Below are positions 8,943 to 38,233 of a stretch of DNA of 64,000 bases, one piece after another (position 1 is the stretch's first letter; every line of letters starts with the position of its first letter). The notes under the pieces are model-generated. The model did no database searches, was not told the origin of the DNA, and was given only the letters and a program-made list of their open reading frames with translations. The DNA is from a virus: positions 1 to 64,000 of the IMG/VR virus record IMGVR_UViG_3300045988_118310; one strand, given 5' to 3'. A program made the translations under genes and the position numbers.

Positions 8943-9161
8943 TTACTTACCTCGGCTACCCTTAATGAATCGTTCCAGAAAAACTAGAGCCAGCCAGATG
9001 CCTGTCGCCACTTTAACGGTAAAAGTGATATTCAGCAGCTTAAAAATCAGCCAAATAATACCAATCGTGATAATCCACGAGGTAAAATATGTAGCTGCCA
9101 GAATCAGAACGATTCCCAGAAAAAAACCAAGTGCCTTAAAGAAATTTTTCCATGCGTTCAA
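8943..9161 (-). CDS. small two-TM membrane protein
   Basis: 72 aa with two hydrophobic helices. Confidence 0.35.
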   Translation of the reverse strand: MNAWKNFFKALGFFLGIVLILAATYFTSWIITIGIIWLIFKLLNITFTVKVATGIWLALVFLERFIKGSRGK

Positions 9162-9265
9162 TTTATCACCTCTATTTCTAACGATAACACGTTATATTTT
9201 ATTAACACATTTACGCTAAAATTTTCATTTTATATAACCCCACCAACCCACCGCTTATACATTAT

Positions 9266-11467
9266 TTAATTGTCGCTCAAATGAACCACTCGATCTCGAA
9301 TTTCCTGAGTGCGCCCCTGATTCCAAAAATTGGTTCCCAGGTAACCACAAGTACGTCTTACGACATTCATTTTGTTCTGGTCACGATTACCACAATTCGG
9401 GCACTCCCATATAAGCTTGTGGTTTTTCTCATCTTCTACAATTTTAATTTCGCCGTCGTAGCCGCAGCACTGGCAGTAGTCGGACTTGGTGTTCAGCTCC
9501 GCATACATGATGTTGTCGTAAATGAACTGCATAACACTAAGCACCGCAGGAATGTTCTGCTGCAGATTTGGCACCTCGATATAGCTAATCGCCCCTCCTG
9601 GAGAAAGCTTCTGGAACTCGCTCTCAAACTTTAGCTTAGTGAAAGCATCGATATGTTCACGGACAACGACATGATAAGAATTTGTTACGTAGTCATGGTC
9701 AGTAATATCTGGAATCATACCAAACCGCTTCTGCAAGCAACGTGCAAATTCATATGTAGTGGACTCCAAAGGAGTACCATACAGAGAGTAATCGATGTTT
9801 TCAGCGGCCTTCCACTCGTTACACTTATCATTCATGTGCCGCATAATTTCGAGAGCAAAAGGTTTAGCATCAGGATCGGTGTGGCTCTTGCCGGTCATAT
9901 ACTTCACACACTCATACAGACCGGCATAACCCAGGCTGATGGTGGAGTAGCCGCCGAAGAGCAACTTGTCGATCTTCTCGCCCTTCTTTAGACGAGCTAA
10001 TGCACCGTACTGCCACAGGATAGGGGCCATATCAGAAGAAGTGCCGAGTAGACGCTTGTGACGAATCTGTAGAGCTCGATGACACAATTCGAGTCGTTCA
10101 TCGAAGATTTTCCAGAATTTATCCTTGTCCCCTTCTGAACTGCAAGCCACGTCCACCAGATTGATGGTCACGACGCCCTGATTGAAGCGGCCATAATACT
10201 TATGCCCCTTAACCCAATTCTTGGCACTAGCTACGTTCTCAGTGGTGCGGTCAGGAGTAAGGAAGGATCTACAGCCCATGCTAGGCCACACACCGCCTTT
10301 AAGCTCCTTCATAACCTTTGCGGAAATATAATCAGGAACCATTCGCTTGGCAGTACACTTAGCTGCCAGCTCAGTCAGGTAATAATACTTAGAATCAGAA
10401 TGAATGTTATCCTCATCAAGAGCATAAATGAGCTTTGGGAAGGCCGGAGTGACCCATACACCAACTTCATTCTTTACACCCTGAATGCGCTGTTTTAACA
10501 CTTCTTCAACAATTAGAGCCAAATCATCACGAGTTTGACCTTCTGGAACTTCATCGAGGTACATAAACACGGTGATAAAAGGGGCCTGGCCGTTTGTCGT
10601 CATCAAAGTGACAACCTGATACTGGATGGTCTGCACGCCACGAGCAATTTCTTTATGTAAACGATCTTCTACAATTCGATTGATAGTTTCAGACTCCGGC
10701 ATCTTATCGATTTCATTATTCTGAACCATCTCGTAAAATTCTTGGTGTACTTCACTTGTGATCTTCTTGCGGGAAACATCTACGAATGGAGCCAGATGTG
10801 AAAGTGTAATACTCTGACCTCCAAATTGCATCGAAGCTACCTGTGCAATGATCTGGGTGGCAATGTTGCAGGCGGTGGAAAAGCTGTGAGGTTTTTCAAT
10901 ATAGGTGCCGGAGATGACGGTGCCGTTCTGGAGCATATCTTCAAGATTGACCAGATCGCAATTATGGCAGTGCATCACAAAATAATCTTTATCATGCACA
11001 TGAATTAAACCACTTTTGTGTGCATCTCGGATATCCTTTGGAAGTAGAAGTCTGTCAGTTAGTTCCTTAGATACCTCTCCGGCCATGTAATCACGTTGCG
11101 TGCTATTGATGGTTGCGTTCTTATTACTGTTTTCCTGATTGATTGCGTCGTTCTGGGCATCAAGAATTTCAAGAATACTTGCGTTGGTTTTCTCTTTATC
11201 TCGAATTTCCTGACGATACTGCCGCCACTGACTATATGCATTTGCAACGTCAATAAACGGGCTATTTGCTAGACTGTCCACTACGATATCCTGAATCTGC
11301 TCAACAGAAAGAATGCCCGGCATGTCTGCGATATAGTCAGCAATCGCATTCGACACACGAGCGTCGATACTACCCGGTGTACAGGTCATCGCCTTCTCGA
11401 CTGCATTCACAATCTTACTTTTATCAAAAGGGACTTCCGTTCCATCGCGTTTAATCACATATTCCAT
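9266..11467 (-). CDS. nrdD: anaerobic ribonucleoside-triphosphate reductase (class III)
   Basis: 733 aa, ATP-cone-like N-terminus, C-terminal glycyl-radical motif RRTCGYLG and Zn-ribbon CCGYDG...CPNCG. Confidence 0.85.
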   Translation of the reverse strand: MEYVIKRDGTEVPFDKSKIVNAVEKAMTCTPGSIDARVSNAIADYIADMPGILSVEQIQDIVVDSLANSPFIDVANAYSQWRQYRQEIRDKEKTNASILEILDAQNDAINQENSNKNATINSTQRDYMAGEVSKELTDRLLLPKDIRDAHKSGLIHVHDKDYFVMHCHNCDLVNLEDMLQNGTVISGTYIEKPHSFSTACNIATQIIAQVASMQFGGQSITLSHLAPFVDVSRKKITSEVHQEFYEMVQNNEIDKMPESETINRIVEDRLHKEIARGVQTIQYQVVTLMTTNGQAPFITVFMYLDEVPEGQTRDDLALIVEEVLKQRIQGVKNEVGVWVTPAFPKLIYALDEDNIHSDSKYYYLTELAAKCTAKRMVPDYISAKVMKELKGGVWPSMGCRSFLTPDRTTENVASAKNWVKGHKYYGRFNQGVVTINLVDVACSSEGDKDKFWKIFDERLELCHRALQIRHKRLLGTSSDMAPILWQYGALARLKKGEKIDKLLFGGYSTISLGYAGLYECVKYMTGKSHTDPDAKPFALEIMRHMNDKCNEWKAAENIDYSLYGTPLESTTYEFARCLQKRFGMIPDITDHDYVTNSYHVVVREHIDAFTKLKFESEFQKLSPGGAISYIEVPNLQQNIPAVLSVMQFIYDNIMYAELNTKSDYCQCCGYDGEIKIVEDEKNHKLIWECPNCGNRDQNKMNVVRRTCGYLGTNFWNQGRTQEIRDRVVHLSDN

Positions 11468-13127: not shown

Positions 13128-13568
13128 TTAAAACTTGACCTCATCGGCACAATCAGGGACCACGGCAGTTTCGATGTTTGGAGCATGGATTTCTGGACAG
13201 AAAACCAAATCATCCGTATAGTCGGGCTTTGCATGACGAGGAATGTAATCCGACATCGTAGTCAGCTTATCAGTTACCTCGTTAGGGACTTTCTTGAGCG
13301 TATCTACGACACTTTCAGCAACCTTCTGCTGTTCCTCTAAAAGCCGGATTTTATAGTCCAAATACCAACGTGCCTTCGTCAAATCTTGAAGCTGAGAATT
13401 GCCATCTTTGTGACCTGCCCGGCTCAGATACTTACCAACATTCCAAAGATAAGCATCCTTGTCTAACTGCCACTCCCGTAGCACTTTGATTGCCTCATAG
13501 GGATTGTCTGCACCGCCGTAATAAGACGGGTGCTCGACGTTCTTCTTGATTTCGTCAAGTGTTTGCAT
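13128..13568 (-). CDS. DUF3310-like phage protein
   Basis: HPSYYGG...PYEAIKVLREW motif characteristic of the DUF3310 family. Confidence 0.45.
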   Translation of the reverse strand: MQTLDEIKKNVEHPSYYGGADNPYEAIKVLREWQLDKDAYLWNVGKYLSRAGHKDGNSQLQDLTKARWYLDYKIRLLEEQQKVAESVVDTLKKVPNEVTDKLTTMSDYIPRHAKPDYTDDLVFCPEIHAPNIETAVVPDCADEVKF

Positions 13569-14271
13569 CAATAACCTCCTTGTTTTTTTCAATAGGCTTA
13601 TAAACATCTGCCAACCGAGGATGACGGCCACAGCAGCCACGACCTTCTGGACAGAACGGATACTTCGGATTAGCCTCACAGGAAGGAACCATCCAGTTTG
13701 CTACTTCAGGACAAACCTGTGCAACTTCCTTCTTCATTTCTGTGAACATCTCGCGGATTTCTTTTTGAGCCCTAGAACAAAGTCGAAGATGACTCATCTC
13801 AATCAAAGCACGAGCGTTCATCGTGATGTAGAATTCTGTACAGCAAGCATTTGGCAGAACTGCACGAGCGTCTTCGTTTTTGGCATTATGATACTTCTTG
13901 AGAATCTGATAATCGGTATCAATGTCCGACATCATATTATCGAAAACATCAGCATCTTCACCGGTAAACGGATTTACATACTTGAATCCATCCTCGCTGC
14001 AATAACGCTGGCTGCGGCAGCTCATGCTAATATGTCGATGACGACTAATCTGTGCCAGAAGTGCGCGACTCACATCTTTGACATAGAACGTAAAGTTGAT
14101 GTGTTCAAGCACAGAATAATGACCGCTGGCCTTACATCCCTTAGCAATCTTATAATCGTCAGTCATTGAAGAATCATAACAAATACTCGCAGCTTCCTCT
14201 ACAATATCTAAAGGATTCTTATCATTTGTAGGAACAACTCGCTGTGTGTACGCAATCAAATCAACAGTCAT
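13555..14271 (-). CDS. thyX: flavin-dependent thymidylate synthase
   Basis: ThyX signature RHRHISMSCRSQRY. Confidence 0.85.
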   Translation of the reverse strand: MTVDLIAYTQRVVPTNDKNPLDIVEEAASICYDSSMTDDYKIAKGCKASGHYSVLEHINFTFYVKDVSRALLAQISRHRHISMSCRSQRYCSEDGFKYVNPFTGEDADVFDNMMSDIDTDYQILKKYHNAKNEDARAVLPNACCTEFYITMNARALIEMSHLRLCSRAQKEIREMFTEMKKEVAQVCPEVANWMVPSCEANPKYPFCPEGRGCCGRHPRLADVYKPIEKNKEVIDANT

Positions 14272-16879: not shown

Positions 16880-18193
16880 TTAGGCATAAGACACCTCGTT
16901 CTTGTCATCTCTAAATCTTACAAAGGTCGGGAATTGCAGGGACTCAGCGCCAGTTTTCTTGTCACAGCTGACCTCTTTGTATTTACACTCAACAATCTTG
17001 CCAATGTAGTCATCAGGATTCGCCCACACAGTAGCTCTCGTAGCGTCATCAAAGCCAGAGCCAATGCGTAGCTCATTACCCTTGTAGTCCACAACGAGAG
17101 CTCCCGTCGTGCCAGCCAGACGGTTCTGACCTTCCTCAATCGCGATGATTCGCAGGTCAACAGTATAAAAACGTTTTACTTTCAGGCATCCATTATGTCG
17201 TGCCCGGCGGTAAGGGACATCTCTGTTACAGACAAGTCCTTCCCAGTCATTTGCAAGAGCGTAATCAAGCCATTTAGCAATCTGTGAATAGTCGGTTCCT
17301 TCGTAGACCATCTCGACAACTTCAATGTTTTGAAGATTGTGCTGCTTGATTTTCTCTTTCAGCTCAAGAAGCCGCTGTTTACGAACTGAATACCGTTCAA
17401 CACATTCGTCATTTTCAAACTGTCTCTGTAGAACCATATCGAAAATTACGAACTTGATGCAGCTCTTATCTGTAGAATCGCTGTTAATAATGCCTGTCCC
17501 AACAACGAAATTTTTGTTATCTGACAGACCATCGACATTCTTACGAATTAACTCTCCATCAAATACATAACCAAAATAGCCAGTATTTTTAATATCGTTG
17601 ATAATGTGGTCAAGTCCAGTAAACTTTTGCGCCTGTCTGGAAATGAACTGACCATTGATAAAGGTGCCGCGCACTCCATTTAATTTGCGCGATACAAAAA
17701 TCATTTCATCCCGCTTCAGTTTAACCTTGTCAATCGGATATCCCTGCTGTACCTCCCAGACAGGAACAATCTCTTCGCCGTACACCTTATTGATGGTAGC
17801 TGCCTCGACTCCGATCGGCAGGTTCTTAGTGAACAGTCGTTTCAGAAACTCTTCGTATTCAGGATTTTTATGTAAATAATTCTGGATTGTTGCGATGGAT
17901 GTATCAGAGCCTGTATTGTGACTAGCACCCATAATATAAAGGTATCCGCAGCTGAGATACTGAACATCGAAATCCGGCCTTGCGGTTACCTTCTTATTGA
18001 TCTTTGCATTAGACAGGCCAGTAACAATTGCCGGGTCAAGCAGGAATCGGAAGAATGCCATTAACTCATCAGCTTCATCTCCAAAATCCTTACGTGCATC
18101 CAGCAAAATGCGGGTCTTGTCCGTCTTTTTCTTTGCTTTCTGCAATGCCTTAACCATCGCATCAAGCTTACCTATGAGCTCTTTATCTGTCAT
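16880..18193 (-). CDS. ATP-dependent DNA ligase
   Basis: motif I KLNGVR, III FDGELI, IV EGLVC, V LKVKR, VI ESLQFPTFVRFRDDK. Confidence 0.75.
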   Translation of the reverse strand: MTDKELIGKLDAMVKALQKAKKKTDKTRILLDARKDFGDEADELMAFFRFLLDPAIVTGLSNAKINKKVTARPDFDVQYLSCGYLYIMGASHNTGSDTSIATIQNYLHKNPEYEEFLKRLFTKNLPIGVEAATINKVYGEEIVPVWEVQQGYPIDKVKLKRDEMIFVSRKLNGVRGTFINGQFISRQAQKFTGLDHIINDIKNTGYFGYVFDGELIRKNVDGLSDNKNFVVGTGIINSDSTDKSCIKFVIFDMVLQRQFENDECVERYSVRKQRLLELKEKIKQHNLQNIEVVEMVYEGTDYSQIAKWLDYALANDWEGLVCNRDVPYRRARHNGCLKVKRFYTVDLRIIAIEEGQNRLAGTTGALVVDYKGNELRIGSGFDDATRATVWANPDDYIGKIVECKYKEVSCDKKTGAESLQFPTFVRFRDDKNEVSYA

Positions 18194-18206
18194 AAAGCCT
18201 CCTTGT

Positions 18207-18233
18207 GTATCCTGTGTTATATAGTTATAGCTA
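18207..18233 (-). promoter_or_regulatory. conserved intergenic motif TAGCTAT..AACACAGGATAC just upstream of the ligase RBS
   Basis: same ~21-nt motif recurs at 18276, 18336(+), 33497, 37759, 43742, 45234(+). Confidence 0.45.
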
Positions 18234-18275
18234 ATAAAGAAAGGCTTGTCGTTACGAGCAAGCCTTCTCTTTCTC
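18232..18275. terminator. stem-loop with flanking T/A-rich runs between helicase and ligase genes
   Basis: GGCTTGTCG-TTA-CGAGCAAGCC hairpin flanked by aataaagaa and ttctctttctc; could terminate either strand. Confidence 0.4.
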
Positions 18276-18294
18276 GTATCCTGTGTTATGCATC
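18276..18294 (-). promoter_or_regulatory. second copy of the ACAGGATAC motif
   Basis: cgtatcctgtgttatgcatc. Confidence 0.4.
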
Positions 18295-18335
18295 TAAAGA
18301 GAGAATTTTAAGCCTACGGGATGGAGACTTTTTAT

Positions 18336-18355
18336 AACTATATTATACAGGATAC
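18336..18355 (+). promoter_or_regulatory. inverted copy of the ACAGGATAC motif
   Basis: taactatattatacaggatac in plus orientation, forming an imperfect inverted repeat with the 18276 copy. Confidence 0.4.
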
Positions 18356-18366
18356 GAATATAATTG

Positions 18367-21300
18367 TCAATGCTTTTCTGAAAATTCTTTCCGTAAAAAT
18401 TCCTTCAAGAACGTCCGCTTGTATGGCACCCTCGAAGTCTTTACAGCCCGATCAAGAGCATGAGTTTCGGCGCAAATCACACAATACTTCTTGGCACGAG
18501 TAATGGCCGTATAGAGCCATTCTCTCGTCAGCATCAGGTATGCAGAGTTGTCCATACCAACAATCACATACGGAGCCTCACTGCCCTGTAGTTTATGACA
18601 ACTTAAAGCATAAGCAAGTTCAAGCGTTGCCCAGATGTTATTCCCACCAAAGTAATGCGGAATGAAGATCGTTCCCCATTGGTCAAAATCAACCAGAATA
18701 AAACTAGTCTCAATCTTTCGGATAATGCCACGGTTTCCGTTGAACACCGGACACTTCTCTTCCTTTTTCTTTGTCTTGAGATTGTATGTGTGAAGTTCAT
18801 AATTGTTCTTGTTGATAATGACTTGATCGCCCTCACGCAGAGTATACACTCTATCCTTGCCATCACCATAGATTGTGACCTTTGCTTCTGCTTGACCACG
18901 ACTCGGATTCACAATTTCCTGAATAGCATTATTGACTTCATAAGTACAGATACTACCACGCAGCTTCTGTGGAAGTACAATCTGAATCTTCGCACTATCA
19001 TTCCCTACCTTATTATATAAGGTACGGTACTGATTGATGATGTGATTGAATGACTCACTTGCATCTTTATAGATATCAAGCTCCAAATCACGAAGTTCAC
19101 CACGAATCTCACTACCAGCCCAGCCATAAGGCACCAATTGCGTAGCATTGCGAACCTTGATGCTCTCCGTGATAATTGCAGACTTAGCTGCCTGACGATG
19201 GATCTTAGTCAACCGAGCCACAGGAACAACCTTAGATGCAAGCATATCCTTGAAAATGTTACACATACCGATGCTCTCAAGCTGTCCGTCATCACCAATC
19301 ATGATGAATCGCTTTCCGGTCTCGATTGCCTGAATCAAGTCATAGAACAACTGAGCTCCAACCATAGATGTCTCATCCAGAATGATAATATCTTCTTCAA
19401 GAGGATTGTCCTTGTTATGAATGAAACCACCATTCTCAATATCATAACCAAGAAGACGATGAATGGTCTTCCCGTCCTGACCAGTAATCTCCTGCATACG
19501 AGCTGCGGCACGTCCAGAGAGTGCAGTCTGAGCGAAAGACTTACCGTGAAGGACCTTTAGAACACCAGCGACAACGGTACTTTTACCGGTGTTGCCTGTG
19601 ACACAAATTCTTCCATTATATCTTATCAGAAACATATGAGACGGAACCGTAAAACAATACTTATATCCATCGCTTGAACGAACAATATCAATATCGCTTT
19701 TACTGCCTTTTGTCATAAGAGAAACTTTTCCATTCGAGTGTTGCACAATATGAACATTATACTCTGTGACCATTCTACCGTGCCGTTCAATATTTGATTC
19801 ATGTACAACAGAACGATAACCACAAGAAGAAAATGCGAACTGAACAAAATCTGCCGTTTCTTTAATCAGTGTACTAAAATCTTTCCGTCTCCCCTCTTTT
19901 ACGTGACCGTCCCAATTTAGAATCTCATCGCAAATCACCTCTAGCTGATGATGATTACAGCTATACCAATACGAAGTAAATCTTTTTTCTTTTCTTGGAG
20001 CATAAAAGACAAAGTTCGAATATTCCAAGTCTTTTGGATTCCACTGATGCTCATCAAAGTATCTACCACTTTCCAAAAGAAGTCTTCTCATGCGAAGTTT
20101 CTTTCGCTCTTTTTTTACGTTTACTCTACACCAAGCTGATTTATGATCCTTCAAAAACGACCCATCGCAAATAACAGCACACATTAGTCTAATATCAGCA
20201 TCGCTCAAATCGATTCCTGGACCATCATAATTGAACGTTGTTATAAAATGTCCGTTAAACCCAGACTTTCGTTTAACATTTCTTTGATACAACTCCCACA
20301 TTGGGATTTTAGCTAAATTGTTTTTGCTGGTCAAGTAAACAACATTATGCTCTGCACTCAATAGTTGATTGATACTGCCCGACTTGTTTTTCATGTGATA
20401 TAGATATTCACATTTAAATTTTACATATTTCTCAGGCTCAACAAGCGTTGTAGTCCCATTTTCATTATATTGAAGAACTTTGTCGCCCTTAACATAATCT
20501 TTTATTTTTTTCCATTGGATACCATTAAAGAACTCCATCTCTGCATCAAGGCATCCGCCGTAACCTGTTAAGATACAGACGTTGCTAGAGCATACCTTTT
20601 TAATAGCATCTCTCTGCTCTTCAGTGTACTCGATACCAAGTTCATCCTCGGCCTCATTGATTGCTGCATCCATATTTCGACCAATCGGCTCAACAGGAAC
20701 ATCCGCCAGACGCTTGATTTCCTTCGCAATACTATCTTCCAGATTCCACACTCTAGTTAAAGCAAATTCCTGACGGTCATCGCTCCACCAAAGCGTTTCA
20801 CGAGCATCATGCAAATGGAAAAGTGCCCTTTTGATGACTTCTTGGTCACCCTCATTCAAATCAAGTTCCTTAATACAGCTATTGATTGTCTGGTTTGCCG
20901 AGATGATAGAGTTGCCTTCTTCGGCACGGCCAGCAAGAAAGTGCATGACGTAAGCTTCAATTCTAAATTGCGAATTGTGTTTCAACCCCATATTCAGAGC
21001 TAGAGCGTCAGCCTTCTTCCAGCCGATGCCATACACATCGTCAATCAGGACGTAAGGATTCTCTTCAATCTTTCTCACCAGAGTGTCTGCACCATGATAT
21101 TGACGGACAAGCTTTTCAATAGCACTAGGGGTCAGACCGTACTCAATTAGCTTTGTGTACGCATCACTGTTATCAATGTTGTTTTCATAAGTATCAATGA
21201 TCTTTTGAGCTCTGCCTTCCGTAATACCACTAACAGTGCAAAGCGACTTGATATCACCATTCTTGATAATCTCATACGGATTTTCGAATGCTTCATAAAG

Positions 21301-21660
21301 TATCTCAAACTGATGGTCGGTCAGGATATAATGGAGAAAGCTTTTCTGTTCTTCCGGGTCAGTAATCTCTTGAAACTCATTCATATAAATGATTTTATAC
21401 TGGTCACCAAACTTTTCATGATGAACATACTCACCACAGAACGAATAAGTTTTATTCATATCGAGGCTAGGAACGTTGCCCTTTAACCGGAGGTCACTGT
21501 ATCGACTCATAACAGGATTTCCCTGCTTGACTTTTACCACCTCGGCAGAGAAAGTGGCGAAGCCGCCGGGCTCCACCTCCCTCCCATCTTTCGGATAAAA
21601 GACTCGTTTTATCCTGATGTAGCAACGGATCATATTTTCATTGAATTTTTTATCTGCCAC
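18367..21660 (-). CDS. RecD-like SF1B DNA helicase interrupted by an intein
   Basis: helicase motifs ILDETSMV, HKLQGSE, LYTAITRAK; Walker A split as LTGYGG|C...N|TGKST. Confidence 0.8.
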   Translation of the reverse strand: MADKKFNENMIRCYIRIKRVFYPKDGREVEPGGFATFSAEVVKVKQGNPVMSRYSDLRLKGNVPSLDMNKTYSFCGEYVHHEKFGDQYKIIYMNEFQEITDPEEQKSFLHYILTDHQFEILYEAFENPYEIIKNGDIKSLCTVSGITEGRAQKIIDTYENNIDNSDAYTKLIEYGLTPSAIEKLVRQYHGADTLVRKIEENPYVLIDDVYGIGWKKADALALNMGLKHNSQFRIEAYVMHFLAGRAEEGNSIISANQTINSCIKELDLNEGDQEVIKRALFHLHDARETLWWSDDRQEFALTRVWNLEDSIAKEIKRLADVPVEPIGRNMDAAINEAEDELGIEYTEEQRDAIKKVCSSNVCILTGYGGCLDAEMEFFNGIQWKKIKDYVKGDKVLQYNENGTTTLVEPEKYVKFKCEYLYHMKNKSGSINQLLSAEHNVVYLTSKNNLAKIPMWELYQRNVKRKSGFNGHFITTFNYDGPGIDLSDADIRLMCAVICDGSFLKDHKSAWCRVNVKKERKKLRMRRLLLESGRYFDEHQWNPKDLEYSNFVFYAPRKEKRFTSYWYSCNHHQLEVICDEILNWDGHVKEGRRKDFSTLIKETADFVQFAFSSCGYRSVVHESNIERHGRMVTEYNVHIVQHSNGKVSLMTKGSKSDIDIVRSSDGYKYCFTVPSHMFLIRYNGRICVTGNTGKSTVVAGVLKVLHGKSFAQTALSGRAAARMQEITGQDGKTIHRLLGYDIENGGFIHNKDNPLEEDIIILDETSMVGAQLFYDLIQAIETGKRFIMIGDDGQLESIGMCNIFKDMLASKVVPVARLTKIHRQAAKSAIITESIKVRNATQLVPYGWAGSEIRGELRDLELDIYKDASESFNHIINQYRTLYNKVGNDSAKIQIVLPQKLRGSICTYEVNNAIQEIVNPSRGQAEAKVTIYGDGKDRVYTLREGDQVIINKNNYELHTYNLKTKKKEEKCPVFNGNRGIIRKIETSFILVDFDQWGTIFIPHYFGGNNIWATLELAYALSCHKLQGSEAPYVIVGMDNSAYLMLTREWLYTAITRAKKYCVICAETHALDRAVKTSRVPYKRTFLKEFLRKEFSEKH
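19591..20553 (-). other. intein (~321 aa) with LAGLIDADG-type homing-endonuclease motifs inside the helicase P-loop
   Basis: starts with Cys after GYGG, contains SAEH (block B-like) and LMCAVICDGSF / FVQFAFSSCGY, ends ...VTGN followed by T; excision restores GYGGTGKST. Confidence 0.6.
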
Positions 21661-21672: not shown

Positions 21673-24600
21673 TTACGCTATCTCTCTATCATGCAGCCAC
21701 TGCTTATAAGGCTTCATCTTCTCAACAATGTACGAATTTTCTTTTCTCTTGCAAAGGATTGCAAGATCGTTACCCTTTGAAATCAGACTTGAATATCGTG
21801 CATACTGAGATGCCCAACAAATCATTTCGACAATACCACCTGTCGTGTAAACATGTAAGTACGCAAACTGGTTGCCACGTTTATCCTTCTTTTTTTGGAT
21901 ATCTACGATGACACAAATAGCAGTTGCCTTACCGCCATCCTCTACAGTATCAAGACCAGCATCAATATAGGTGCAAGCATCCTTAATGGGATTGCTAGTC
22001 AAAAACATTGAAAGAGTTTCAAATTCCCACATGTGCTCGTCTTGCATATACTTTTCAGCAAACGCCTGCATAAATGCATTCCGCTTTTTGTCTTTTTCTT
22101 TCTTTCGATTCCATGTGCCCGCTTCCCAGCGCTCCCTTCTTACCTTATTATATAAGGCAAGTCTGGTTGGTTTGTCTTTAACAGAGTCCGTATCAATGCC
22201 GTATTCGTCTTTAAGAATGGAAATCTTAGGGAGAGACGCCATCTCATGGAATCCTTTCTCTTTATACTCATTCTCAAAAACCATATTTGCAAAAGTGATT
22301 AAGATTTTTTTCTTATCCTTTGTCGGGATAGCGCCAGCCTTAATCAACTTGACAACATTTGAGGTTCCAATCTTACCACCGTTTGCTCTCTGAACAAAGT
22401 CTGCCAGTCCAGAATATGGACGGTCTGCAATCACTCCTGAAGCGACACTCTCACCCATTCCCTTAATGGCTTTCAAACCAAACAGGATTGTGTGCTTTTC
22501 CGCATCAGCCTTAAATTCCATATCAGACTTGTTGACACTTGGAGGAAGGACACGAATATGTAGACGGTCGCATTCGTTGATAAACACACCCATTTTGCCA
22601 GAATCGTCTTCCTTGGTAATCATACACGCAGCCATGAAATACTCAGTATAATGAGTTTTCAGGTAAGCCGTCAGGTAAGAAAGAAGTCCATACGCAACTG
22701 CGTGGCCTCTATTAAAGGAATAAGAAGCCTGCTTCAAGATTAGTGCCCACATCTCAGAAATCTGGTAATCATTCCATCCTTTCTTGTGAAGACCATCTCG
22801 GAACTGAACTTCCAAGGATGCCATAACATCTTTCTTTTTCTTGCCGATAGCACGACGAGCATTGTCAACCTCAGTTTCAGGGAATCCTGCATAGCGGAAT
22901 ACCGCTAGTGCCTGTTCCTGATAAAGAAGAATGTATTGCGTCTTAGCAAAAAGCTGTTTGATGTCAGGATGGAGTAGTTTGATAGTCTCTGGATGAAGTT
23001 TATTGGAGCAATACGTCGGGAAGCTGTCCTTAGTACCAGGACGATTCGCTGCGTTCACAACAATGATATCCTCAGCATTATCGCACTTTGCTTCAACACA
23101 CATCTTTCGTGCTTCTGCAGATTCCATCTGGAAAATGCCAATTGTGTTGCCCGACTTGTAGACGGTATCATAGACAGCCTTATCACTTAGATCAAGATGG
23201 TTGATATCGACATCTTCCCATGTTAATCCAGCCATCTTTAACGTATCGTCAATAATGTCCAGATTCTCAAGACCAAGGAAGTCCATCTTGACCAGCGACA
23301 AATCATCCATGGCATTGTGCATCTCAAGTTGGCACATCTGATTGCCTTCTCTGTCCATACAAAGAGGACAATATTCAATGACAGGCTTGGGCGTAATCAA
23401 TGTACCGGCAGCATGGCGACCCATACTCTTAGGCAGACCCTCAAGACGCATAACGTATTTGAACCATAGAGGAAACTTGTCATATACATTAGAAAGCTGT
23501 TCACTCTTTCCGAGGATATCCTTTAGTAGAACTTCCTTTTCAACTTCTTCGCCAAGATCATCCAGCGTTTTTACAGTCGGAATTAACTTGGCGACCTCAT
23601 TACGTAATTCATACGGAATCTGCATATAATACGGGCTTTCTGGGTCTTCGTTCAGAACTTTGCCAATATCTTTGATGGCAACTTTTGTAGACAAAGAGTT
23701 AAACGTAGCGATAGGAGCAACATTTTCTTTGCCGAAAAGTTCTTCTGCAATAGCAATAAGTTCCTTTCGACGACGTTTAGAGACATCGAAGTCGAAGTCG
23801 GCCAGGCTCTTTCTACCTTTGTTTGCAAAGCGAGAGAAGTCAAGATCCCAACGAACAGAGTCAATCTGAGTAACATTCTCCATAAAAAGGCAAAGACAAT
23901 TTGCGCCAGAACCACGAGAGTACCCACGAGGAATTTTGCGTTCATCAGCCTTTTTGCAAAGCATATACAGCATAATGAAATAGTCAATATAATCAACATA
24001 CTTCAAAACATCCAGTTCCATCTCAATACGATTCCGCCGGGTTTGCTGTTCCACTTCACTCATCCACCCGAATTTTTTATTAAAAGTGGCATATACAAGG
24101 TGCCGAAGATAATCAAAATGAGAATCAAATTTTCCCTCAATTTTCACTTCTGGCATCTGGTTCGGCTGTCCAAGACCGATATCGATATCATCAATCATGT
24201 CTGCGATTTTCACAGACATCTCACAGCCTTTTTTGATAAAGTCCTCATCAAACTGCTTTGATAGCGTTCTCAAAACATCGTTTTCAGTCTGAAGATAGCA
24301 GTCAACGTAGCTTTCACCAACTTCTCGGCCTTCTCCAATCTCAACAAAGACAGAGTGTGCATCAATATCTTCTTTAGAAAGCATGTGAGCATCGGTCGTA
24401 ATGGTATACGGCAAGTCGTATTTCCTAATAAACGCCGCAATTTTTGCATTGGCCTCAGCTTGATCTGGCGTATCATGTGACTGTACTTCCATAAACACGT
24501 CATCAAAGATCCATTCCAGTTTGTTCCATAACTGCCATGCTTCAGTCTCGTTGCCATCAACAAGTAATCTACTCATTCGACCAACTTGACAGGCTGTAAG

Positions 24601-25017
24601 ACAGATGATACCTTTACCCCACTCGTTCTGTTCAATAATGTTCAAAGAAGTTCGAGGCTTTTTATACATACCATCAACGCAAGCATTTGAAACAATCTTA
24701 AATAGATTTTTTAAACCGGTCTCGTTCTTTGCTAGTAAAACAAGATGGTAACGAGGTTGTTTATAGTCTTTTGTATCGGCTTTCTCTGCCTGATTATCTA
24801 CTTCATAGACTTCACAGCCGATGATAGGCTTAATACCTGCTTCCTTGCAAGCCTTAACTTGGTCAACAAAAGAGTGCATTTTTCCGTGGTCTGTAACCGC
24901 GATTGCTTTCTGGCCATTTTCTTTGGCAAAGTTTACAAGTTCCTTGACGGTAAGAATAGAGTCAAGTAACGAACCCTGCGCTGTATGTACATGAAGATTT
25001 ACAAAATTATCTGACAT
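21673..25017 (-). CDS. dnaE: DNA polymerase III alpha subunit (DnaE-type)
   Basis: 1114 aa; N-terminal PHP domain (NLHVHT...), Pol IIIalpha core. Confidence 0.8.
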   Translation of the reverse strand: MSDNFVNLHVHTAQGSLLDSILTVKELVNFAKENGQKAIAVTDHGKMHSFVDQVKACKEAGIKPIIGCEVYEVDNQAEKADTKDYKQPRYHLVLLAKNETGLKNLFKIVSNACVDGMYKKPRTSLNIIEQNEWGKGIICLTACQVGRMSRLLVDGNETEAWQLWNKLEWIFDDVFMEVQSHDTPDQAEANAKIAAFIRKYDLPYTITTDAHMLSKEDIDAHSVFVEIGEGREVGESYVDCYLQTENDVLRTLSKQFDEDFIKKGCEMSVKIADMIDDIDIGLGQPNQMPEVKIEGKFDSHFDYLRHLVYATFNKKFGWMSEVEQQTRRNRIEMELDVLKYVDYIDYFIMLYMLCKKADERKIPRGYSRGSGANCLCLFMENVTQIDSVRWDLDFSRFANKGRKSLADFDFDVSKRRRKELIAIAEELFGKENVAPIATFNSLSTKVAIKDIGKVLNEDPESPYYMQIPYELRNEVAKLIPTVKTLDDLGEEVEKEVLLKDILGKSEQLSNVYDKFPLWFKYVMRLEGLPKSMGRHAAGTLITPKPVIEYCPLCMDREGNQMCQLEMHNAMDDLSLVKMDFLGLENLDIIDDTLKMAGLTWEDVDINHLDLSDKAVYDTVYKSGNTIGIFQMESAEARKMCVEAKCDNAEDIIVVNAANRPGTKDSFPTYCSNKLHPETIKLLHPDIKQLFAKTQYILLYQEQALAVFRYAGFPETEVDNARRAIGKKKKDVMASLEVQFRDGLHKKGWNDYQISEMWALILKQASYSFNRGHAVAYGLLSYLTAYLKTHYTEYFMAACMITKEDDSGKMGVFINECDRLHIRVLPPSVNKSDMEFKADAEKHTILFGLKAIKGMGESVASGVIADRPYSGLADFVQRANGGKIGTSNVVKLIKAGAIPTKDKKKILITFANMVFENEYKEKGFHEMASLPKISILKDEYGIDTDSVKDKPTRLALYNKVRRERWEAGTWNRKKEKDKKRNAFMQAFAEKYMQDEHMWEFETLSMFLTSNPIKDACTYIDAGLDTVEDGGKATAICVIVDIQKKKDKRGNQFAYLHVYTTGGIVEMICWASQYARYSSLISKGNDLAILCKRKENSYIVEKMKPYKQWLHDREIA

Positions 25018-27024: not shown

Positions 27025-28749
27025 TCAAATCACCTCAAAATCAACAATCTGCGCCTGCGGAGTAACTTTGTTTCCGTACTGATTTAAAGACAACCGGCAT
27101 ACAGCATTGATGTATTTTTCTTCCTGATCACCATAGAAGTCATTATTGATCCAGCCAATCATCCGGCCATTATCTGCAAAGCACACAAAATCAATGCCTT
27201 TTTCTTCATCAGAATACTTCCACATATTGCCGTTCTTGCCCATCGGAGCACATCCACTATGAATCAGCGGAATATTTTTAATGTAGAAATATGGCTCTGA
27301 GATTCCCTGTGCCCAGATTTTATGCATTTCATACATGGTCTTCGGCAATGCAACAGTCAGCCTACTATAGTCAAAATCAAAGTCAACCACGATTGCTTTG
27401 CTCATCGTGACATCTTTAAGCAGCTCATTACAATCCGCAATCGCCTTTGGCACGTTTTCTTTCTTGATTTTCACACCAGCAGCATTATCATGACCAAGAA
27501 CTGACTCAAAATCTCCGGTACTCATCAGGAACTCCTTTAAACTTTCAATCGGAGAGCCGTCAGGATTTCTCATTGAACCACCGTAATAGTCCGGTTCATC
27601 AGCAAAAGTACGAAGCAATACGCACGGTTTTGCATACATTTCGGCCAGCTTGATTGCCACAACACCAGTCAGAGTGTTATCAAGAATGCCAGTGGAGTTG
27701 CAGAAGAGAATCTTATTCTGGTCTGCACCATGCTTTTCAATCAGTTCCTGCAACTCTGCAACAGCCTTATCCTTAGTTTTGTTTTGCTGATATTTACAAG
27801 ACGAACACTCACGAGCCACATGCTGTGCCAGAGTCTCGTCAATCGTGACACCGGCATTCTTGCCACGAGTCGGAGTGTACTGGAACGTCTGTTCCTCACC
27901 GACCATCGCACGGAACATCCGCTTCTTTTGCTCGGATGAGCCAACACGAATCAGTGCGTTCATCATCGGAACGATGTAGAACTGAATATCATTGATAGTC
28001 GGGTCACCCTTGATGTTGAAACTATTCGCCTCAACCAGAGCACAAATCATCGGATTTACAATTCGTGCAAGACCTTTTGTGCAAAGGCGCTTTGTCTCAT
28101 GCGAGTGCATATCCATAACGTCACCGATATTTCCGACTGCCACTAAATCAAGATACCTGTCTGCAACATCAGTCCAATTATCTTCATCAACGGCTTGAAG
28201 GAACTTATATACCACGCCAGCACCAGACAGTTCCTTGTTAGGATATGTACCATTCTGGTTATTAACGATTACTGCGTAAGGATTCTCTCTGTCGCAGATG
28301 TGATGGTCAAGAATCAGAATATCGATGCCCTTATCACGAAGTTCCTTGCACTGCTCAACATCGTTACTACCAGCATCAGGGATAATCAGCAAGGTAGTTT
28401 CAGGTGGAACCTCAATTTCTTTAGAGAGTCCATGTTCCTTGCCACTATGATGCAGAACATTGATTTTTCCAAAATAACCAATCGCTTTCAAATACTGAAA
28501 CATCATCGAAGCACTTGTAAAACCGTCCACATCACAGTCTACAAGGATAGAGATGATAGATTTTTTCCAAAGGTGTTTATTCAACATCATGACAGCATAC
28601 TCGATATTGTCCAATTCCCACGGAGAATTCAAGCAAGAATCATCCAGATTCATGTAGGTCTTATAATCCTTGACCCCTCTGTTCTCCATAATCGTTCCAA
28701 TCGGGTCTGATAGGTCGTTCCTACTCCCCTTCCAGAGTTTTACATTCAT
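27025..28749 (-). CDS. RecJ-like DHH-family ssDNA exonuclease
   Basis: DHH motifs (ILILDHHICD) and DHHA1 (GHDNAAG). Confidence 0.7.
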   Translation of the reverse strand: MNVKLWKGSRNDLSDPIGTIMENRGVKDYKTYMNLDDSCLNSPWELDNIEYAVMMLNKHLWKKSIISILVDCDVDGFTSASMMFQYLKAIGYFGKINVLHHSGKEHGLSKEIEVPPETTLLIIPDAGSNDVEQCKELRDKGIDILILDHHICDRENPYAVIVNNQNGTYPNKELSGAGVVYKFLQAVDEDNWTDVADRYLDLVAVGNIGDVMDMHSHETKRLCTKGLARIVNPMICALVEANSFNIKGDPTINDIQFYIVPMMNALIRVGSSEQKKRMFRAMVGEEQTFQYTPTRGKNAGVTIDETLAQHVARECSSCKYQQNKTKDKAVAELQELIEKHGADQNKILFCNSTGILDNTLTGVVAIKLAEMYAKPCVLLRTFADEPDYYGGSMRNPDGSPIESLKEFLMSTGDFESVLGHDNAAGVKIKKENVPKAIADCNELLKDVTMSKAIVVDFDFDYSRLTVALPKTMYEMHKIWAQGISEPYFYIKNIPLIHSGCAPMGKNGNMWKYSDEEKGIDFVCFADNGRMIGWINNDFYGDQEEKYINAVCRLSLNQYGNKVTPQAQIVDFEVI

Positions 28750-29768
28750 TTAATTCTCCTAACACAGTTTTCAATCAATGCCTTAAATTTTTCAGGATTA
28801 TCAGTCGGGGCTTCCTTTTCATCCAGAATCCCTTTATCATCTACTACAGCATACACACTTACGCCATCGACAAATCGATTAGCGAGAACCATAAGCTCAC
28901 TAAGCTGAACGTCTTTATCAAATACAAAACAAATATCAACGCAAAGACGTGTTAAAATTTCAATTTGATTCTGTGAAACCTTCTTACCGCCAGTCGCCAC
29001 ACAGTTGTAGACATCCATGTTCCACATCTGCATGACAGACTTTTCAGCTTCACCAACATATACCAGACCTTCATTCTTAATGTACGGCTCTGTCTTATAC
29101 AGGCCATACAGAATACGGTTTCTGGCACACGGCTCAAGATATAGATACTTTAATTCACCTTCAGGCGGCTTACCAAAATATCTTCCCTTTACACCAACCA
29201 AAGTACCAATTTCATCTCTGATTGGAATCGTGATTCTATTTGTTAGTTCATCAAAACCAATCTCAAACTCCCGTTGTGTCTCGTAAGATATCCCATCGTC
29301 AGCAAAAATCTGGTTAACATAAGGTTTGTAATAACCGAGGATGGCTTCGGAGATGGGGACTATCGGACGGTCATCCTCGTGTTCTTCACCTTCATTTTGC
29401 ATGGTGATGAGTTCTTTTAGAATCAACATACTTTTAGGAAGGTCTTCCTCGAAGTTGTGATAGTAGTCAAGTCCAACCCATTCGCAGATTTGCTTAATAG
29501 CTTTTGGGAAAGACAGTTCCAGAAAGAACTGGACGACAGAAATCAAATCATAACTGGTCTTTCCATTGACAATGTCTCGTGTGTAATCTACCGCAGTAAG
29601 ATTTTCATTCTCGTAGATACAGAGTGCCGTCCTATTGTCACCATCTGGATTCGCACACTGATAATATCCAGCTTTATGACTAATATGATGACAACCAAGC
29701 TCCTCCAAAATTGGTTCAATCTGCTGTTCTTCAAGAATATAATTTTTCAGATCTGCGATATTTACCAT
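28746..29768 (-). CDS. DnaG-like DNA primase
   Basis: N-terminal zinc-binding CHH...C...C, TOPRIM-like VGEAEKS ... DKD. Confidence 0.55.
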   Translation of the reverse strand: MVNIADLKNYILEEQQIEPILEELGCHHISHKAGYYQCANPDGDNRTALCIYENENLTAVDYTRDIVNGKTSYDLISVVQFFLELSFPKAIKQICEWVGLDYYHNFEEDLPKSMLILKELITMQNEGEEHEDDRPIVPISEAILGYYKPYVNQIFADDGISYETQREFEIGFDELTNRITIPIRDEIGTLVGVKGRYFGKPPEGELKYLYLEPCARNRILYGLYKTEPYIKNEGLVYVGEAEKSVMQMWNMDVYNCVATGGKKVSQNQIEILTRLCVDICFVFDKDVQLSELMVLANRFVDGVSVYAVVDDKGILDEKEAPTDNPEKFKALIENCVRRIK

Positions 29769-29777: not shown

Positions 29778-31301
29778 TTACTTTCTGGTGCAGACACCGA
29801 CCTCTTTCCAGACATTCTGGTTCAAATTCACTTCAAACATGATTTTCTTCTTCTCGCCAAAACGGTTCTTGTCAATGTTTCCAACATAGTACCGTTTGTC
29901 TGGATTTAACCGATGAGCACAGTCGCCGCCCCATTCAGGGTCATGAAAGATGTATTGATACTTTGCGAACTTATCTTTCGGAATCTCCTTGAATAGAACC
30001 ATCGTCCAAGCAACATGCTTAATCATTTTTGACTCAGCAATATTGTTTGAATTCAGCTCATCAGGGAGATACTCATGAGCATTTTCAGCCAACTGGATAC
30101 TACCGTAGATGAAAATCTTCAGATTCTTCGCAATCTCTTCAAGCTCGGTGGCCGTGACCTTGAACGCTGCCCATTCACCAATAGATGCAATGTCGTTCTT
30201 TAGAGTATCATAAAACACATACTTAACTCCCTGAGTGAGAGCTGCCTTCTGGATTTCAAATCGCAGGGACTTATCACTATAATCAGCAGAAACATCTTTT
30301 GCGATAATCAAGCCTTGTGATTCGCTCTCAATCCACTGGCAAACATCAAGTACATTGCGGTACTCTTCGCTTTCCTCATAGACACGGGCGGTAAACTCAT
30401 CAATGCTTTCTATGTATTCTCCGTCTTCGTTTTGTTTTCTGAAGATGAAGTTTCCATTTGCATCCCGGTACATCCCAAGGGTGATTTCTCGCTCGTCCTT
30501 ATGGAAACGATGACCATGCAACTCTTGAAACTCAGGATTATTGATGGCGGTGACTAGCAAGCAATACCGGACTGACTCAAGATCCATCTCATTCAGCAGC
30601 AAAAGAGCTTTCTGCTTTTGAACCAATGTGACGTAGGCAACAATCGCCATCATATATCTAGTCTTACCAGCGTTAGATGGCATACCATTAAACATCACAG
30701 TGCCCAACTTCAATCCTCGGAACAAATCATTCATGATAGGATACTGGAACGGTAAACCCATATCGGGAACGCTCAGACGCTCATTGACCATTGGTAGCAG
30801 ACCATTATTCAAAATCTCAGCATCATCGTTTGTAATGATAACCGTATTGATCTTGTCGGCCTTGCCACGAATCAATTTGTAAATGTCCTGAGCACCAAAC
30901 ATTTCAAACCGTTGATGCTTTAAGATTCCTTCAATGTTAAATCCGTTTCTCTGATACTCACGAAGTAGCGAATATTTCTTCAGGATATTGAAATATCCCT
31001 TGATATCATCGTCATTCGCAAGACTCATGTAGTATTCAATGGTTGACCAGCCCTTCAGCCGCTTGTATTGGGACAATCTGGACTCATCTTCAGCCATAAA
31101 CGTTAAAACAGACGTTTTATTAAATTCTTGAGTCCGAGTTTCATAAATAATTAACGCTGCATCGTAGAAAAATTTTGTTGCTTCATCGGCAAAATCGTAC
31201 TTGCTCTTGACATAATGCCCATACTCGACCAAATAGTCAGGATGCTTGTAAATTGCGCCAACAAATAGAATTTCATTCGGGATATTTGAAATGAGTTCCA
31301 C
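29778..31301 (-). CDS. DnaB-like replicative helicase
   Basis: Walker A GMPSNAGKTRYM, RecA-like C-terminal domain. Confidence 0.6.
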   Translation of the reverse strand: MELISNIPNEILFVGAIYKHPDYLVEYGHYVKSKYDFADEATKFFYDAALIIYETRTQEFNKTSVLTFMAEDESRLSQYKRLKGWSTIEYYMSLANDDDIKGYFNILKKYSLLREYQRNGFNIEGILKHQRFEMFGAQDIYKLIRGKADKINTVIITNDDAEILNNGLLPMVNERLSVPDMGLPFQYPIMNDLFRGLKLGTVMFNGMPSNAGKTRYMMAIVAYVTLVQKQKALLLLNEMDLESVRYCLLVTAINNPEFQELHGHRFHKDEREITLGMYRDANGNFIFRKQNEDGEYIESIDEFTARVYEESEEYRNVLDVCQWIESESQGLIIAKDVSADYSDKSLRFEIQKAALTQGVKYVFYDTLKNDIASIGEWAAFKVTATELEEIAKNLKIFIYGSIQLAENAHEYLPDELNSNNIAESKMIKHVAWTMVLFKEIPKDKFAKYQYIFHDPEWGGDCAHRLNPDKRYYVGNIDKNRFGEKKKIMFEVNLNQNVWKEVGVCTRK

Positions 31302-31318: not shown

Positions 31319-32011
31319 TTATATCTCATCGAGAATTGCACTTATATCAATTTCATTCTCGTTTTTACTCTGTTTCGGTGCTGTTTTCATACGTTTCAGT
31401 ACCGTTTCAGTCAGATTTTCCTTCATTTTTTCTTCGCTTTCACTGCGAATCGAAGCTAGTCTTTCTTTTCGATCGAGATAACTAGGATATTGAGCCAATA
31501 AAACAGCCAAGTCGTAATTCCATCGCTGACTCATATCACAACCCTTTGCTTCTTTCTCGGCAACTATCTTATCTAGTCGGGGTTTCGCTAGAACCCACAT
31601 ATCGTAAAGTTCTAGCGGAGGAATAGAACCTCTGTATTTGTAATAATTACCGGAAATTAACTGCGCAAGTTTCGAGTAGAAGCTACCAGGAACAACCGCC
31701 GGGGCGTATATATCTCGAATATGGTCGAAAAGAATCTTTTTCTCTTCCTGTTTGATATGTGCAAGCTCACGATTGTGGTCTTGTTCTCTCTTTTTGGAAA
31801 GAAGATCATCGACCTTTTTATCCGTAGTGTCATTCACTTTGTCAAAAAATGCCCTTAGCAGGTCATCTGTCCAAGGGCGTTTTTGATTTTTCTTTTTTTC
31901 TACAAAACAATCCTTATGATAAAAACCAGTCTTGTCGTAGAAAAATGTGCTACGGTCTCGCTCGATGAAAATGTTCTTCCCGCAAATCTTGCATTTACGG
32001 GTTAGTTCCAT
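31319..32011 (-). CDS. hypothetical protein with N-terminal zinc finger (possible helicase loader / replication accessory)
   Basis: CKICG...HKDC; position between helicase and recombination ATPase. Confidence 0.35.
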   Translation of the reverse strand: MELTRKCKICGKNIFIERDRSTFFYDKTGFYHKDCFVEKKKNQKRPWTDDLLRAFFDKVNDTTDKKVDDLLSKKREQDHNRELAHIKQEEKKILFDHIRDIYAPAVVPGSFYSKLAQLISGNYYKYRGSIPPLELYDMWVLAKPRLDKIVAEKEAKGCDMSQRWNYDLAVLLAQYPSYLDRKERLASIRSESEEKMKENLTETVLKRMKTAPKQSKNENEIDISAILDEI

Positions 32012-33187: not shown

Positions 33188-33481
33188 TTAAACTTTCAAA
33201 CACTCATACCACGGATCACCCGTTTCAACTGCATGAGCAACATAATCCAACTGACGGGTGATGTTATCCACACTATCAACCAGAAGGTCTTTACACCCTA
33301 CCGGAACAGCACCACCATTGCATTCCGCGTCGGCTTTAGCTTCTGCAATAATCTCAGGATGCGTAGTAAACACAATAGACATCATCGGAGAGTCTTCTTC
33401 AGGTTCCTTTTCAAGCGCTTCGATGTAGACAATGTAAAATTTCATACCATTATAAGCGGTATACTCAAGAGTATTCTGCAT
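33188..33481 (-). CDS. hypothetical protein
   Basis: 97-aa ORF preceded by RBS and the ACAGGATAC motif. Confidence 0.4.
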   Translation of the reverse strand: MQNTLEYTAYNGMKFYIVYIEALEKEPEEDSPMMSIVFTTHPEIIAEAKADAECNGGAVPVGCKDLLVDSVDNITRQLDYVAHAVETGDPWYECLKV

Positions 33482-38227: not shown

Positions 38228-38233
38228 ATGAAA

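Follow-up and report, generated by a model that had tools for sequence, protein, structure and literature searches.

To our knowledge, monomeric integrase-fold master repressors that act on long asymmetric operators have been described only between 2023 and 2025, and only in Bacillus phages of the SPβ family. Phage P1 C1, a protein of unrelated fold, also uses asymmetric operators; these are 17 bp long, occupy many dispersed sites in either orientation, and overlap early promoters. In SPβ, chromatin affinity precipitation sequencing (ChAP-seq), gel shifts, and reporters showed that MrpR binds an element named SPBRE in about ten intergenic regions, including those of aimR and the repressor operon (PMC10516654). 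The structure of phi3T SroF with DNA has a monomer encircling a 26-bp non-palindromic box, of which 24 bp are read; SroF sites are many and dispersed over the genome, and each phage has its own specific box (bioRxiv 10.1101/2025.11.27.690993). Here, we describe a 21-nucleotide (nt) motif that recurs in a 64,000-nt stretch of viral DNA (IMG/VR record IMGVR_UViG_3300045988_118310, positions 1 to 64,000; hereafter, the window), taken from a genome of ~130 kb. The motif is probably the operator set of the phage's own MrpR/SroF-family repressor, the product of a 308-residue (aa) open reading frame (ORF), and would thus be the counterpart of SPBRE. Sequence analysis shows where the sites lie, which promoters accompany them, to which family the repressor belongs, and that motif and repressor co-vary.

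The window and SPβ have much in common. Recovered from the SPβ genome, SPBRE is AAATACAAAWAATATGTATATAAT. It lies inside TAGACA-17-TATAAT promoters (yorE, yonP, yorZ, and yosX) and also directly before the ribosome-binding site (RBS), downstream of the promoter (yopV and yopM). In both phages, the operator is long and asymmetric, the sites are dispersed and intergenic, and one is found at the repressor's own operon. Sites are of two kinds, in the spacer of a sigma-A promoter or immediately ahead of an RBS, where a stem-loop often precedes them. The repressors (MrpR/YopR/SroF in SPβ) are of integrase fold, with a CB domain at the N-terminus and a CAT-like domain at the C-terminus; the SPβ protein lacks the catalytic arginines and the window protein lacks Arg I. 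The phage backbones are also alike, with synteny across yorI, yorJ, yorK, and yorL. Conversely, the operators are unrelated (window consensus TAGCTATRYAAYACAGGATAC, compared with AAATACAAAWAATATGTATATAAT), the window repressor is co-transcribed with a MazF-like toxin rather than with yopM-Q genes, and the host is a bacterium of the human gut rather than Bacillus. For phi3T SroF, the best structural match of the 308-aa model, the 26-bp box is CAGTAATTTTATTTTTATTCTTAATG (PDB 9rd5). Repressor and box form phage-specific pairs there, and the box has no sequence similarity to the window motif. No Sar antirepressor or LexA control was identified in the window. Similarly, no AimR-like or TPR regulator domain was detected in the window ORFs scanned (64 kb of ~130 kb), and no LexA/Cheo box was found near candidate antirepressor genes; the only GAAC-N4-GTTC match is at chance level and in a coding region. 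Hence, with no arbitrium or LexA-Sar coupling in the window, we class the system as being of the repressor/operator kind, and not the phage as an 'arbitrium phage'. Lambda CI and Cro resemble our proposal in early-promoter occlusion and autoregulation. They differ in using 17-bp dyads, bound by dimers and clustered in two regions, and no CI/Cro-type helix-turn-helix was found in the window.

The motif has a 9-nt core, ACAGGATAC, that occurs exactly seven times in 64 kb, where ~0.5 occurrences are expected (128 kb over two strands). The cores are at 18207(-), 18276(-), 18347(+), 33497(-), 37759(-), 43742(-), and 45246(+). Allowing up to one mismatch gives 25 matches, compared with 10.5 +/- 3.1 in shuffles. 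Alignment on the core extends the consensus to 21 nt, TAGCTATRYAAYACAGGATAC, and a weight-matrix scan exceeds 12 bits only at the same seven sites, which score 28-33 bits each. The seven 21-nt sites are long, non-palindromic, and dispersed across five intergenic regions spanning 27 kb. Note that all genes in the window are on the minus strand, while the orientation of the motif is mixed. Copies co-directional with the genes are called F-type and those reversed relative to them R-type. The seven copies are:

18207-18227, minus strand: F-type copy TAACTATATAACACAGGATAC, separated by 3 nt from AGGAGG and by 13 nt from the ATG that starts the ATP-dependent DNA ligase ORF
18276-18296, minus strand: middle F-type copy TAGATGCATAACACAGGATAC, the weakest (28.6 bits); GCAGGATAC in some relatives
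18335-18355, plus strand: R-type copy TAACTATATTATACAGGATAC, reversed relative to the genes; kept in relatives, sometimes with single-base core variants
33497-33517, minus strand: F-type copy TAGCTATGCAATACAGGATAC, 3 nt before the AGGAG of a 97-aa ORF (33188-33481)
37759-37779, minus strand: F-type copy TAGCTATGTAACACAGGATAC, 4 nt before AGGAGG upstream of the C5 methyltransferase ORF; follows a tRNA array and the hairpin at 37808-37821
43742-43762, minus strand: F-type copy TAGATATATAATACAGGATAC, directly after the hairpin at 43775-43794 and upstream of a 688-aa ORF (41645-43711)
45234-45254, plus strand: R-type copy TAGCTATATTATACAGGATAC, within the promoter of the MazF-like/MrpR-like operon, in the same register as at 18335-18355

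A preliminary description of this DNA had listed these seven copies and called the core invariant. Both statements stand; every copy is at the coordinates given and the core is exact in 7 of 7. Likewise, three copies do lie between the RecD2-type helicase and ligase genes, flanking a hairpin, and the outer two form an inverted pair (21 of 23 positions match). The genes named downstream were also correct, namely those for the ligase, methyltransferase, and MazF-like protein, the 97-aa ORF with which the replication module begins, and the 688-aa ORF plus Pnkp. Two details need correcting. The literal pattern TAGCTAT-N4-5-ACAGGATAC fits only three of the seven copies; the left half varies between TAGCTAT, TAACTAT, TAGATAT, and TAGATGC. 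In addition, minus-strand copies were said to be 10-15 nt upstream of an RBS. The actual distance is 3-4 nt (18207, 33497, and 37759) or 19 nt (43742), and 10-15 nt better fits the distance to the start codon. Equal frequency of the motif in coding DNA had been raised as a possible objection, and this is not what we found. Real coding regions hold none of the seven copies, in a window that is ~93% coding by a crude ORF call. Across 80 related IMG/VR loci, where ORFs cover 89% of the sequence, 274 of 292 exact cores are outside ORFs.

The two R-type copies coincide with the following promoters, the first of which is followed by a hairpin:

18370-18342, minus strand: sigma-A-type promoter TTGACA-17-TATAAT (12/12), with -35 at 18370-18365 and -10 at 18347-18342; faces the ligase gene, start predicted near 18335
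45269-45241, minus strand: sigma-A-type promoter TTGACT-17-TATAAT (11/12), with -35 at 45269-45264 and -10 at 45246-45241
18312-18328, minus strand: small hairpin (GTCTCC-N5-GGAGGC in relatives) with a T-rich run behind it, close to the start predicted for the 18370 promoter and downstream of it

Both promoters are consensus matches, with start sites that are predicted and not mapped. Across the window, only five intergenic matches on the minus strand reach 11/12 or better, these two included. The register of motif and promoter is identical in the two cases. The reverse complement, GTATCCTG, occupies the last 8 nt of the spacer, TATAAT belongs to the motif, and the TAGCTAT half extends to about +1. 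Both hexamers of the 18370 promoter are kept in relatives. For the 45269 promoter, upstream of the MazF-like gene and then the 308-aa ORF in one operon, the -35 element, motif, and -10 element are conserved among 36 unique relatives, and the six spacer bases between the -35 element and the motif are variable. We rejected an extended -10 element (TGn) at these promoters, where TG adjoins TATAAT without a spacer base. The hairpin at 18312-18328 has one compensatory change, from C-G to T-A, in locus L131, and a stem mismatch in the window's own copy. It could be an attenuator in the ligase leader.

The five F-type copies are co-directional with the genes and just upstream of RBSs; the copy at 18276 is within the leader of the ligase operon. 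For four of the five, a hairpin with a T-rich tail precedes the motif (18241-18266, 18312-18328, 37808-37821, and 43775-43794). Two of these are terminator-like:

18241-18266, minus strand: terminator-like hairpin AAGGCTTGCTCGTAACGACAAGCCTT followed by TCTTTATT
43775-43794, minus strand: terminator-like hairpin that ends the repressor operon

We also considered F-type copies as sigma-A promoters in their own right. This was rejected; they have no -35 element at 16-18 nt and the internal TATAAY hexamer is often C-ended.

The protein proposed to bind the motif is encoded between two of the sites:

43798-44724, minus strand: 308-aa ORF, the proposed motif binder and a remote member of the MrpR/YopR/SroF family of integrase-fold repressors

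On its own, the ORF gives a weak 'integrase' call in PHROGs, and its best Pfam match is MrpR_N_CB at 19 bits, below the cut-off of 27. The homologue P0066, 78% identical, scores 27.7 bits with the same model and cut-off, and for most close homologues a newer Pfam release supplies precomputed MrpR_C_cat annotations. When 1.8 billion representative proteins were searched with a HMMER profile, 70 relatives were obtained, with lengths of about 320-340 aa. Ten remote relatives were scanned with Pfam and matched only MrpR_N_CB or MrpR_C_cat, five of them above the cut-off and one without a match. P0163, one of the 70, matches SPβ YopR at 1.7e-23. Furthermore, a family hidden Markov model (HMM), built from the window protein and 62 relatives, picked only yopR (mrpR/sroF) from 468 six-frame SPβ ORFs, with an expectation value (E) of 2e-25; none of the genuine SPβ integrases was matched. 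In Foldseek, the top three PDB matches of the 308-aa model are phi3T SroF with DNA, MrpR, and YopR, ahead of Tn1549 Int and Cre. By these comparisons, kinship with the MrpR/YopR/SroF family is real but remote. Box I reads GLTSEE in the 308-aa ORF, GLRISE in Tn1549 Int, and GLAHSE in YopR, so that Arg I is replaced by Thr here and by Ala in YopR. The Thr is retained across the clade. Loss of Arg I fits the loss of catalysis described for MrpR, and the 308-aa protein has probably lost recombinase activity; note that its other catalytic positions are not reliably placeable, the model being weak in residues 178-240. A CI/Cro-type helix-turn-helix, a sigma factor, or RNA polymerase domains were not detected in 104 further window ORFs. 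Using tblastn, we found no match for the 308-aa ORF among GenBank phages.

If the 308-aa protein reads the motif, the two should change together. Repressors 73-100% identical to that of the window are present at 80 IMG/VR loci and on several ENA and Logan contigs. The lineage is spread over more than 100 IMG/VR contigs, and a single exact repressor sequence, P0049, is on record for 445 contigs. Neither the protein alignment nor a promoter-operator DNA pattern found a match in species-representative bacterial genomes. Close relatives keep the core at orthologous sites despite differences in the downstream gene (688-aa ORF, RNA ligase, or Pnkp). At the 18207 site, the core is exact in 14 of the 14 relatives displayed, from 58 unique upstream regions. 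Of the 58 unique relatives, 34 have the R-F-F cluster intact upstream of the ligase, and the others differ by single core bases. The informative case is a divergent syntenic clade, L284-L287, in which the repressor is only 37% identical, while its neighbours are 70-93% identical and the MazF-like gene 93%. At these loci, ACAGGATAC is absent. Both the site in the MazF-like promoter and that downstream of the repressor are changed to GTAKAGTAWACAGAAT, and both read GTA(T/G)AGTA(A/T)ACAGAAT. Sites within one genome agree at 16-19 of 21 positions, compared with 11-16 of 21 for orthologous sites of different clades. Hence, the operator set appears to have changed in concert, together with its binder. 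The preliminary description had offered an operator for a phage transcription factor as one of two readings. Occurrence in both orientations, a fixed register on two canonical promoters, and co-variation with an MrpR/SroF-family gene all favour it.

The degenerate half-sites previously reported at 45666-45718 are a different element. They score below 12 bits and have only a -10-like TATAAT in common with the motif:

45658-45714, minus strand: tandem direct repeat ACAAAAAGATGT(G)TATAATATAT, two copies, upstream of a 108-aa ORF

The repeat forms back-to-back sigma-A-like promoters, TTTACA-16-TAATAT and TTGACT-16-TATAAT. It has a loose resemblance to SPβ SPBRE (ACAAAWAATATGTATATAAT). It is also conserved in the clade with the 37%-identical repressor and, therefore, does not co-vary with that protein.

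The mechanism that we propose is taken from published SPβ and phi3T work, and it is by analogy with these systems that we infer binding itself, its monomeric nature, and the roadblock role of F-type sites. Briefly, one repressor monomer would wrap one asymmetric site, which would therefore work in either orientation. At R-type sites, the operator would span about -21 to +1 of the sigma-A promoter and bound repressor would exclude RNA polymerase. At 18335, this would shut off the leader of the ligase/nucleotide-metabolism operon; at 45234, the outcome would be negative autoregulation of the MazF-like/repressor operon. At F-type sites, the operator is between a hairpin and the RBS of the next block, and bound repressor could act as a roadblock to read-through transcription. 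The blocks held back in this way would be 688-aa/Pnkp, the methyltransferase, the replication module, and the ligase. On induction, release of the repressor would open all blocks simultaneously.

Several observations weigh against this reading. With respect to the repressor, the AlphaFold model is mediocre (predicted local distance difference test score of 68, and template-modelling scores of 0.2-0.35 in the structural matches), and the protein is ~16% identical to YopR, so homology is remote. Comparisons of the 308-aa ORF with SPβ YopR by BLASTP and hhalign were not significant. Searches of PDB sequences with phmmer and a profile gave no MrpR match, only a weak box-I alignment to Tn1549 Int. 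A HMM from the 19 closest remote relatives did not reach YopR, and the wider 62-member set was needed. With respect to the sites, every SPBRE copy in the SPβ upstream regions that we examined points the same way with regard to the gene it precedes, while the window motif flips between site types. The methyltransferase site in the divergent clade is without the new motif. The F-type junctions have a hairpin upstream and no -35 element, and the genes behind them may be transcribed via leaky hairpins, an antiterminator, or unrecognised promoters. Finally, the repressor is not the only gene swapped in the divergent clade. The 108-aa ORF (45289-45615, minus strand) is too, and could be the binder instead.

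That another phage protein reads the motif seems to us rather unlikely; the 108-aa ORF, the next one upstream of the repressor operon, would be the main candidate, with a 279-aa Phage_integrase-family ORF second, by analogy with SroD/YopP. The 108-aa product has paired cysteines, as might a zinc-binding DNA reader. At the same position in L284 there is an unrelated 105-aa ORF (9116-9433; BLASTP E 4.5), between the 208-aa and MazF-like genes. Since the intervening MazF-like gene is 93% identical, the 108-aa ORF co-varies with the motif as well as the repressor does. However, it has no domain match in Pfam or PHROGs and no precedent as a DNA binder. By analogy with Sar and SroF, a small co-evolving partner is equally likely to be an antirepressor. 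The predicted isoelectric point is 7.7 and hence not acidic. We regard the ORF as a candidate cognate partner of the repressor and operator, either an antirepressor or Cro-like. The 279-aa ORF is ~48% identical in both clades, in L004, which keeps the motif, as in L284, where the motif is changed, and therefore does not track it. A phage-specific promoter, used by a phage sigma factor or RNA polymerase to define a middle-gene regulon, was the other reading of the preliminary description, and is improbable. Five of seven copies are co-directional, directly before an RBS and usually after terminator-like hairpins, as expected for the start of a new transcription unit. T7-type promoters (~23 bp) are akin to the motif (~21 nt) in length, strong conservation, and location upstream of several gene blocks, and a YonO-like polymerase could be encoded in the half of the genome outside the window. 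T7-type promoters, however, need a phage RNA polymerase and a single orientation, and neither holds in the window. Two of seven copies oppose all genes and coincide with consensus sigma-A promoters on the coding strand, and the co-directional copies have no consistent -35 element. With only 3-4 nt from motif to Shine-Dalgarno sequence at 18207, 33497, and 37759, a start site would not fit in either. Of the window ORFs scanned (again 64 kb of ~130 kb), none has a sigma factor or RNA polymerase domain, and tblastn of window proteins found no match to YonO in SPβ. The motif co-varies instead with a repressor-family gene. We rejected the 688-aa ORF as a hidden RNA polymerase; it has no polymerase metal-binding motif of the DxDGD type and is accessory, with 58 of 84 related loci lacking it. 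A match of the motif to the late consensus of SPO1 (CGTTAGA...GATATT) was rejected for its wrong spacing.

Two further explanations do not involve a DNA-binding regulator. The motif might be a recombination or module-boundary site, serving either as integrase core sites, with an invertible MazF-like/repressor cassette between 43742 and 45246, or as patches of homology that favour the exchange of cassettes. We think this very improbable. An inverted pair does flank the two-gene cassette, and two integrase-like ORFs are present. Moreover, the point at which relatives diverge in gene content is immediately behind the F-type site that follows the repressor. What comes next there is the 688-aa plus 127-aa ORFs, an RNA ligase, or Pnkp, and the 688-aa ORF is present in 26 of 84 related loci. 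The 688-aa/127-aa region is a mosaic junction at an operator and terminator. Yet such junctions at regulatory intergenic sequences are common in phages and a dedicated site is unnecessary. Gene order and orientation of the MazF-like/repressor cassette are the same in 84 of 84 related loci, and never inverted. The adjacent integrase-fold protein is without catalytic Arg I, and the motif lacks the internal dyad and central spacer of tyrosine-recombinase core sites. An element acting in RNA, whether copies that pair into a processing or stability stem (RNase III-type) or a shared signal in 5' untranslated regions, is the reading to which we give least credence. F-type copies would be transcribed in 5' leaders and, in minus-strand RNA from 18195 to 18372, the outer R and F copies can pair into a ~20-bp stem (-46.3 kcal/mol, z -4.9). 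But a distance suited to pairing occurs in one cluster only; the copies at 33497 and 37759 are single, and those at 43742 and 45246 are 1.5 kb apart. Single-base variants of the R copy are uncompensated in the F copy. In addition, the R-type motif is mostly upstream of the predicted start, so that transcripts from that promoter would leave most of it out. At the motif sites, no Rfam family reaches its gathering score; the window's only Rfam matches, to seven tRNAs and an IMPDH RNA, lie in other places.

The proposed repressor and its operators are set in a dense minus-strand gene array, with negative GC skew throughout. The window covers the early and replication half of an SPβ-like phage known from human-gut metagenomes, which a Tn916-type integrase and an excisionase show to be temperate. 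The main features are:

455-1612: Tn916-type integrase, with an excisionase (the latter not located)
9266-11467: anaerobic ribonucleotide reductase
13555-14271: ThyX
16880-18193, minus strand: ATP-dependent DNA ligase
18367-21660, minus strand: RecD2-type helicase
21673-25017, minus strand: PolIII-alpha
27025-28749, minus strand: RecJ-like exonuclease
28746-29768, minus strand: primase
29778-31301, minus strand: DnaB-like helicase
32011-33159, minus strand: Sak4-like protein
36277-37731, minus strand: C5 methyltransferase
37883-38900, minus strand: array of seven tRNAs (Met, Gly, Leu x3, Gln, and Pro), between the Pnkp/RNA-ligase ORF and the methyltransferase
38968-41178, minus strand: Pnkp/RNA ligase
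41247-41630, minus strand: 127-aa ORF, with the 688-aa ORF between the F-type site and Pnkp
41645-43711, minus strand: 688-aa ORF, phrog_1735, no Pfam or PDB match
44778-45197, minus strand: MazF/PemK-like toxin, 139 aa, first gene of the operon under the 45269 promoter

The 97-aa ORF (33188-33481) heads the Sak4-like/DnaB-like/primase/RecJ-like/PolIII-alpha module. The helicase/primase/RecJ-like/PolIII block is collinear with SPβ yorI, yorJ, yorK, and yorL, at 24-35% identity. By PolIII, the nearest GenBank phage is Clostridium phage Amboise (47%); a megablast search of GenBank phages with 10 kb of window sequence found nothing. The IMPDH RNA (RF02994, 127 bits where 95 is the gathering score) is at 7-113 on the minus strand, a little past the Tn916-type integrase, and probably marks the end of the prophage or a host flank.

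Other observations concern individual genes. The MazF-like toxin heads the repressor operon, which we propose to be autoregulated, and no obvious antitoxin is present. For SPβ, yopM, with which the repressor operon opens, is reported to act on the MazE/MazF system of the host (PMC10516654). It is a curious parallel that the window's repressor operon opens with a MazF-like gene. The tRNA array, Pnkp/RNA ligase, and MazF-like toxin together suggest that damage to tRNA and its repair are a common theme. There are 17 nt between the Shine-Dalgarno sequence of the methyltransferase ORF and its start, and the match to the Pfam model lacks the N-terminal part. At normal spacing from that Shine-Dalgarno sequence, there is a GTG in another frame (region 36277-37741), and a separate 141-aa ORF (35734-36159, minus strand) also matches a methyltransferase family. 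Hence, the gene may be frameshifted, split, or preceded by a leader ORF. The 279-aa ORF mentioned above, the second of the integrase family (51811-52650, minus strand; Pfam Phage_integrase, 59 bits), adjoins a DUF6291/DnaB_2-like ORF. Between relatives that are otherwise close, it is ~48% identical. Its position in the early region recalls that of SroD/YopP in SPβ.

Our analysis indicates that the same repressor/operator logic operates, with its own recognition sequence, in a widespread lineage of ~130-kb phages from the human gut. For annotation, a phage group in which most early genes have no known function gains a probable lysogeny repressor, the operators of that repressor, and two strong early promoters. 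The natural pair of specificity variants, ACAGGATAC and ACAGAAT, is a ready test set for how the integrase fold reads DNA. More speculatively, and we think this doubtful, the motif, the repressor, and the swapped 108-aa/105-aa ORF might form a portable immunity-specificity module that works without arbitrium. F-type gates, controlled by the repressor, would then split the early region into exchangeable cassettes that are each silenced on their own, and the MazF-like toxin would tie in lysogeny maintenance, through addiction or abortive infection. If true, such a module would be a new wiring of the integrase-fold repressor system and not a copy of the Bacillus one.

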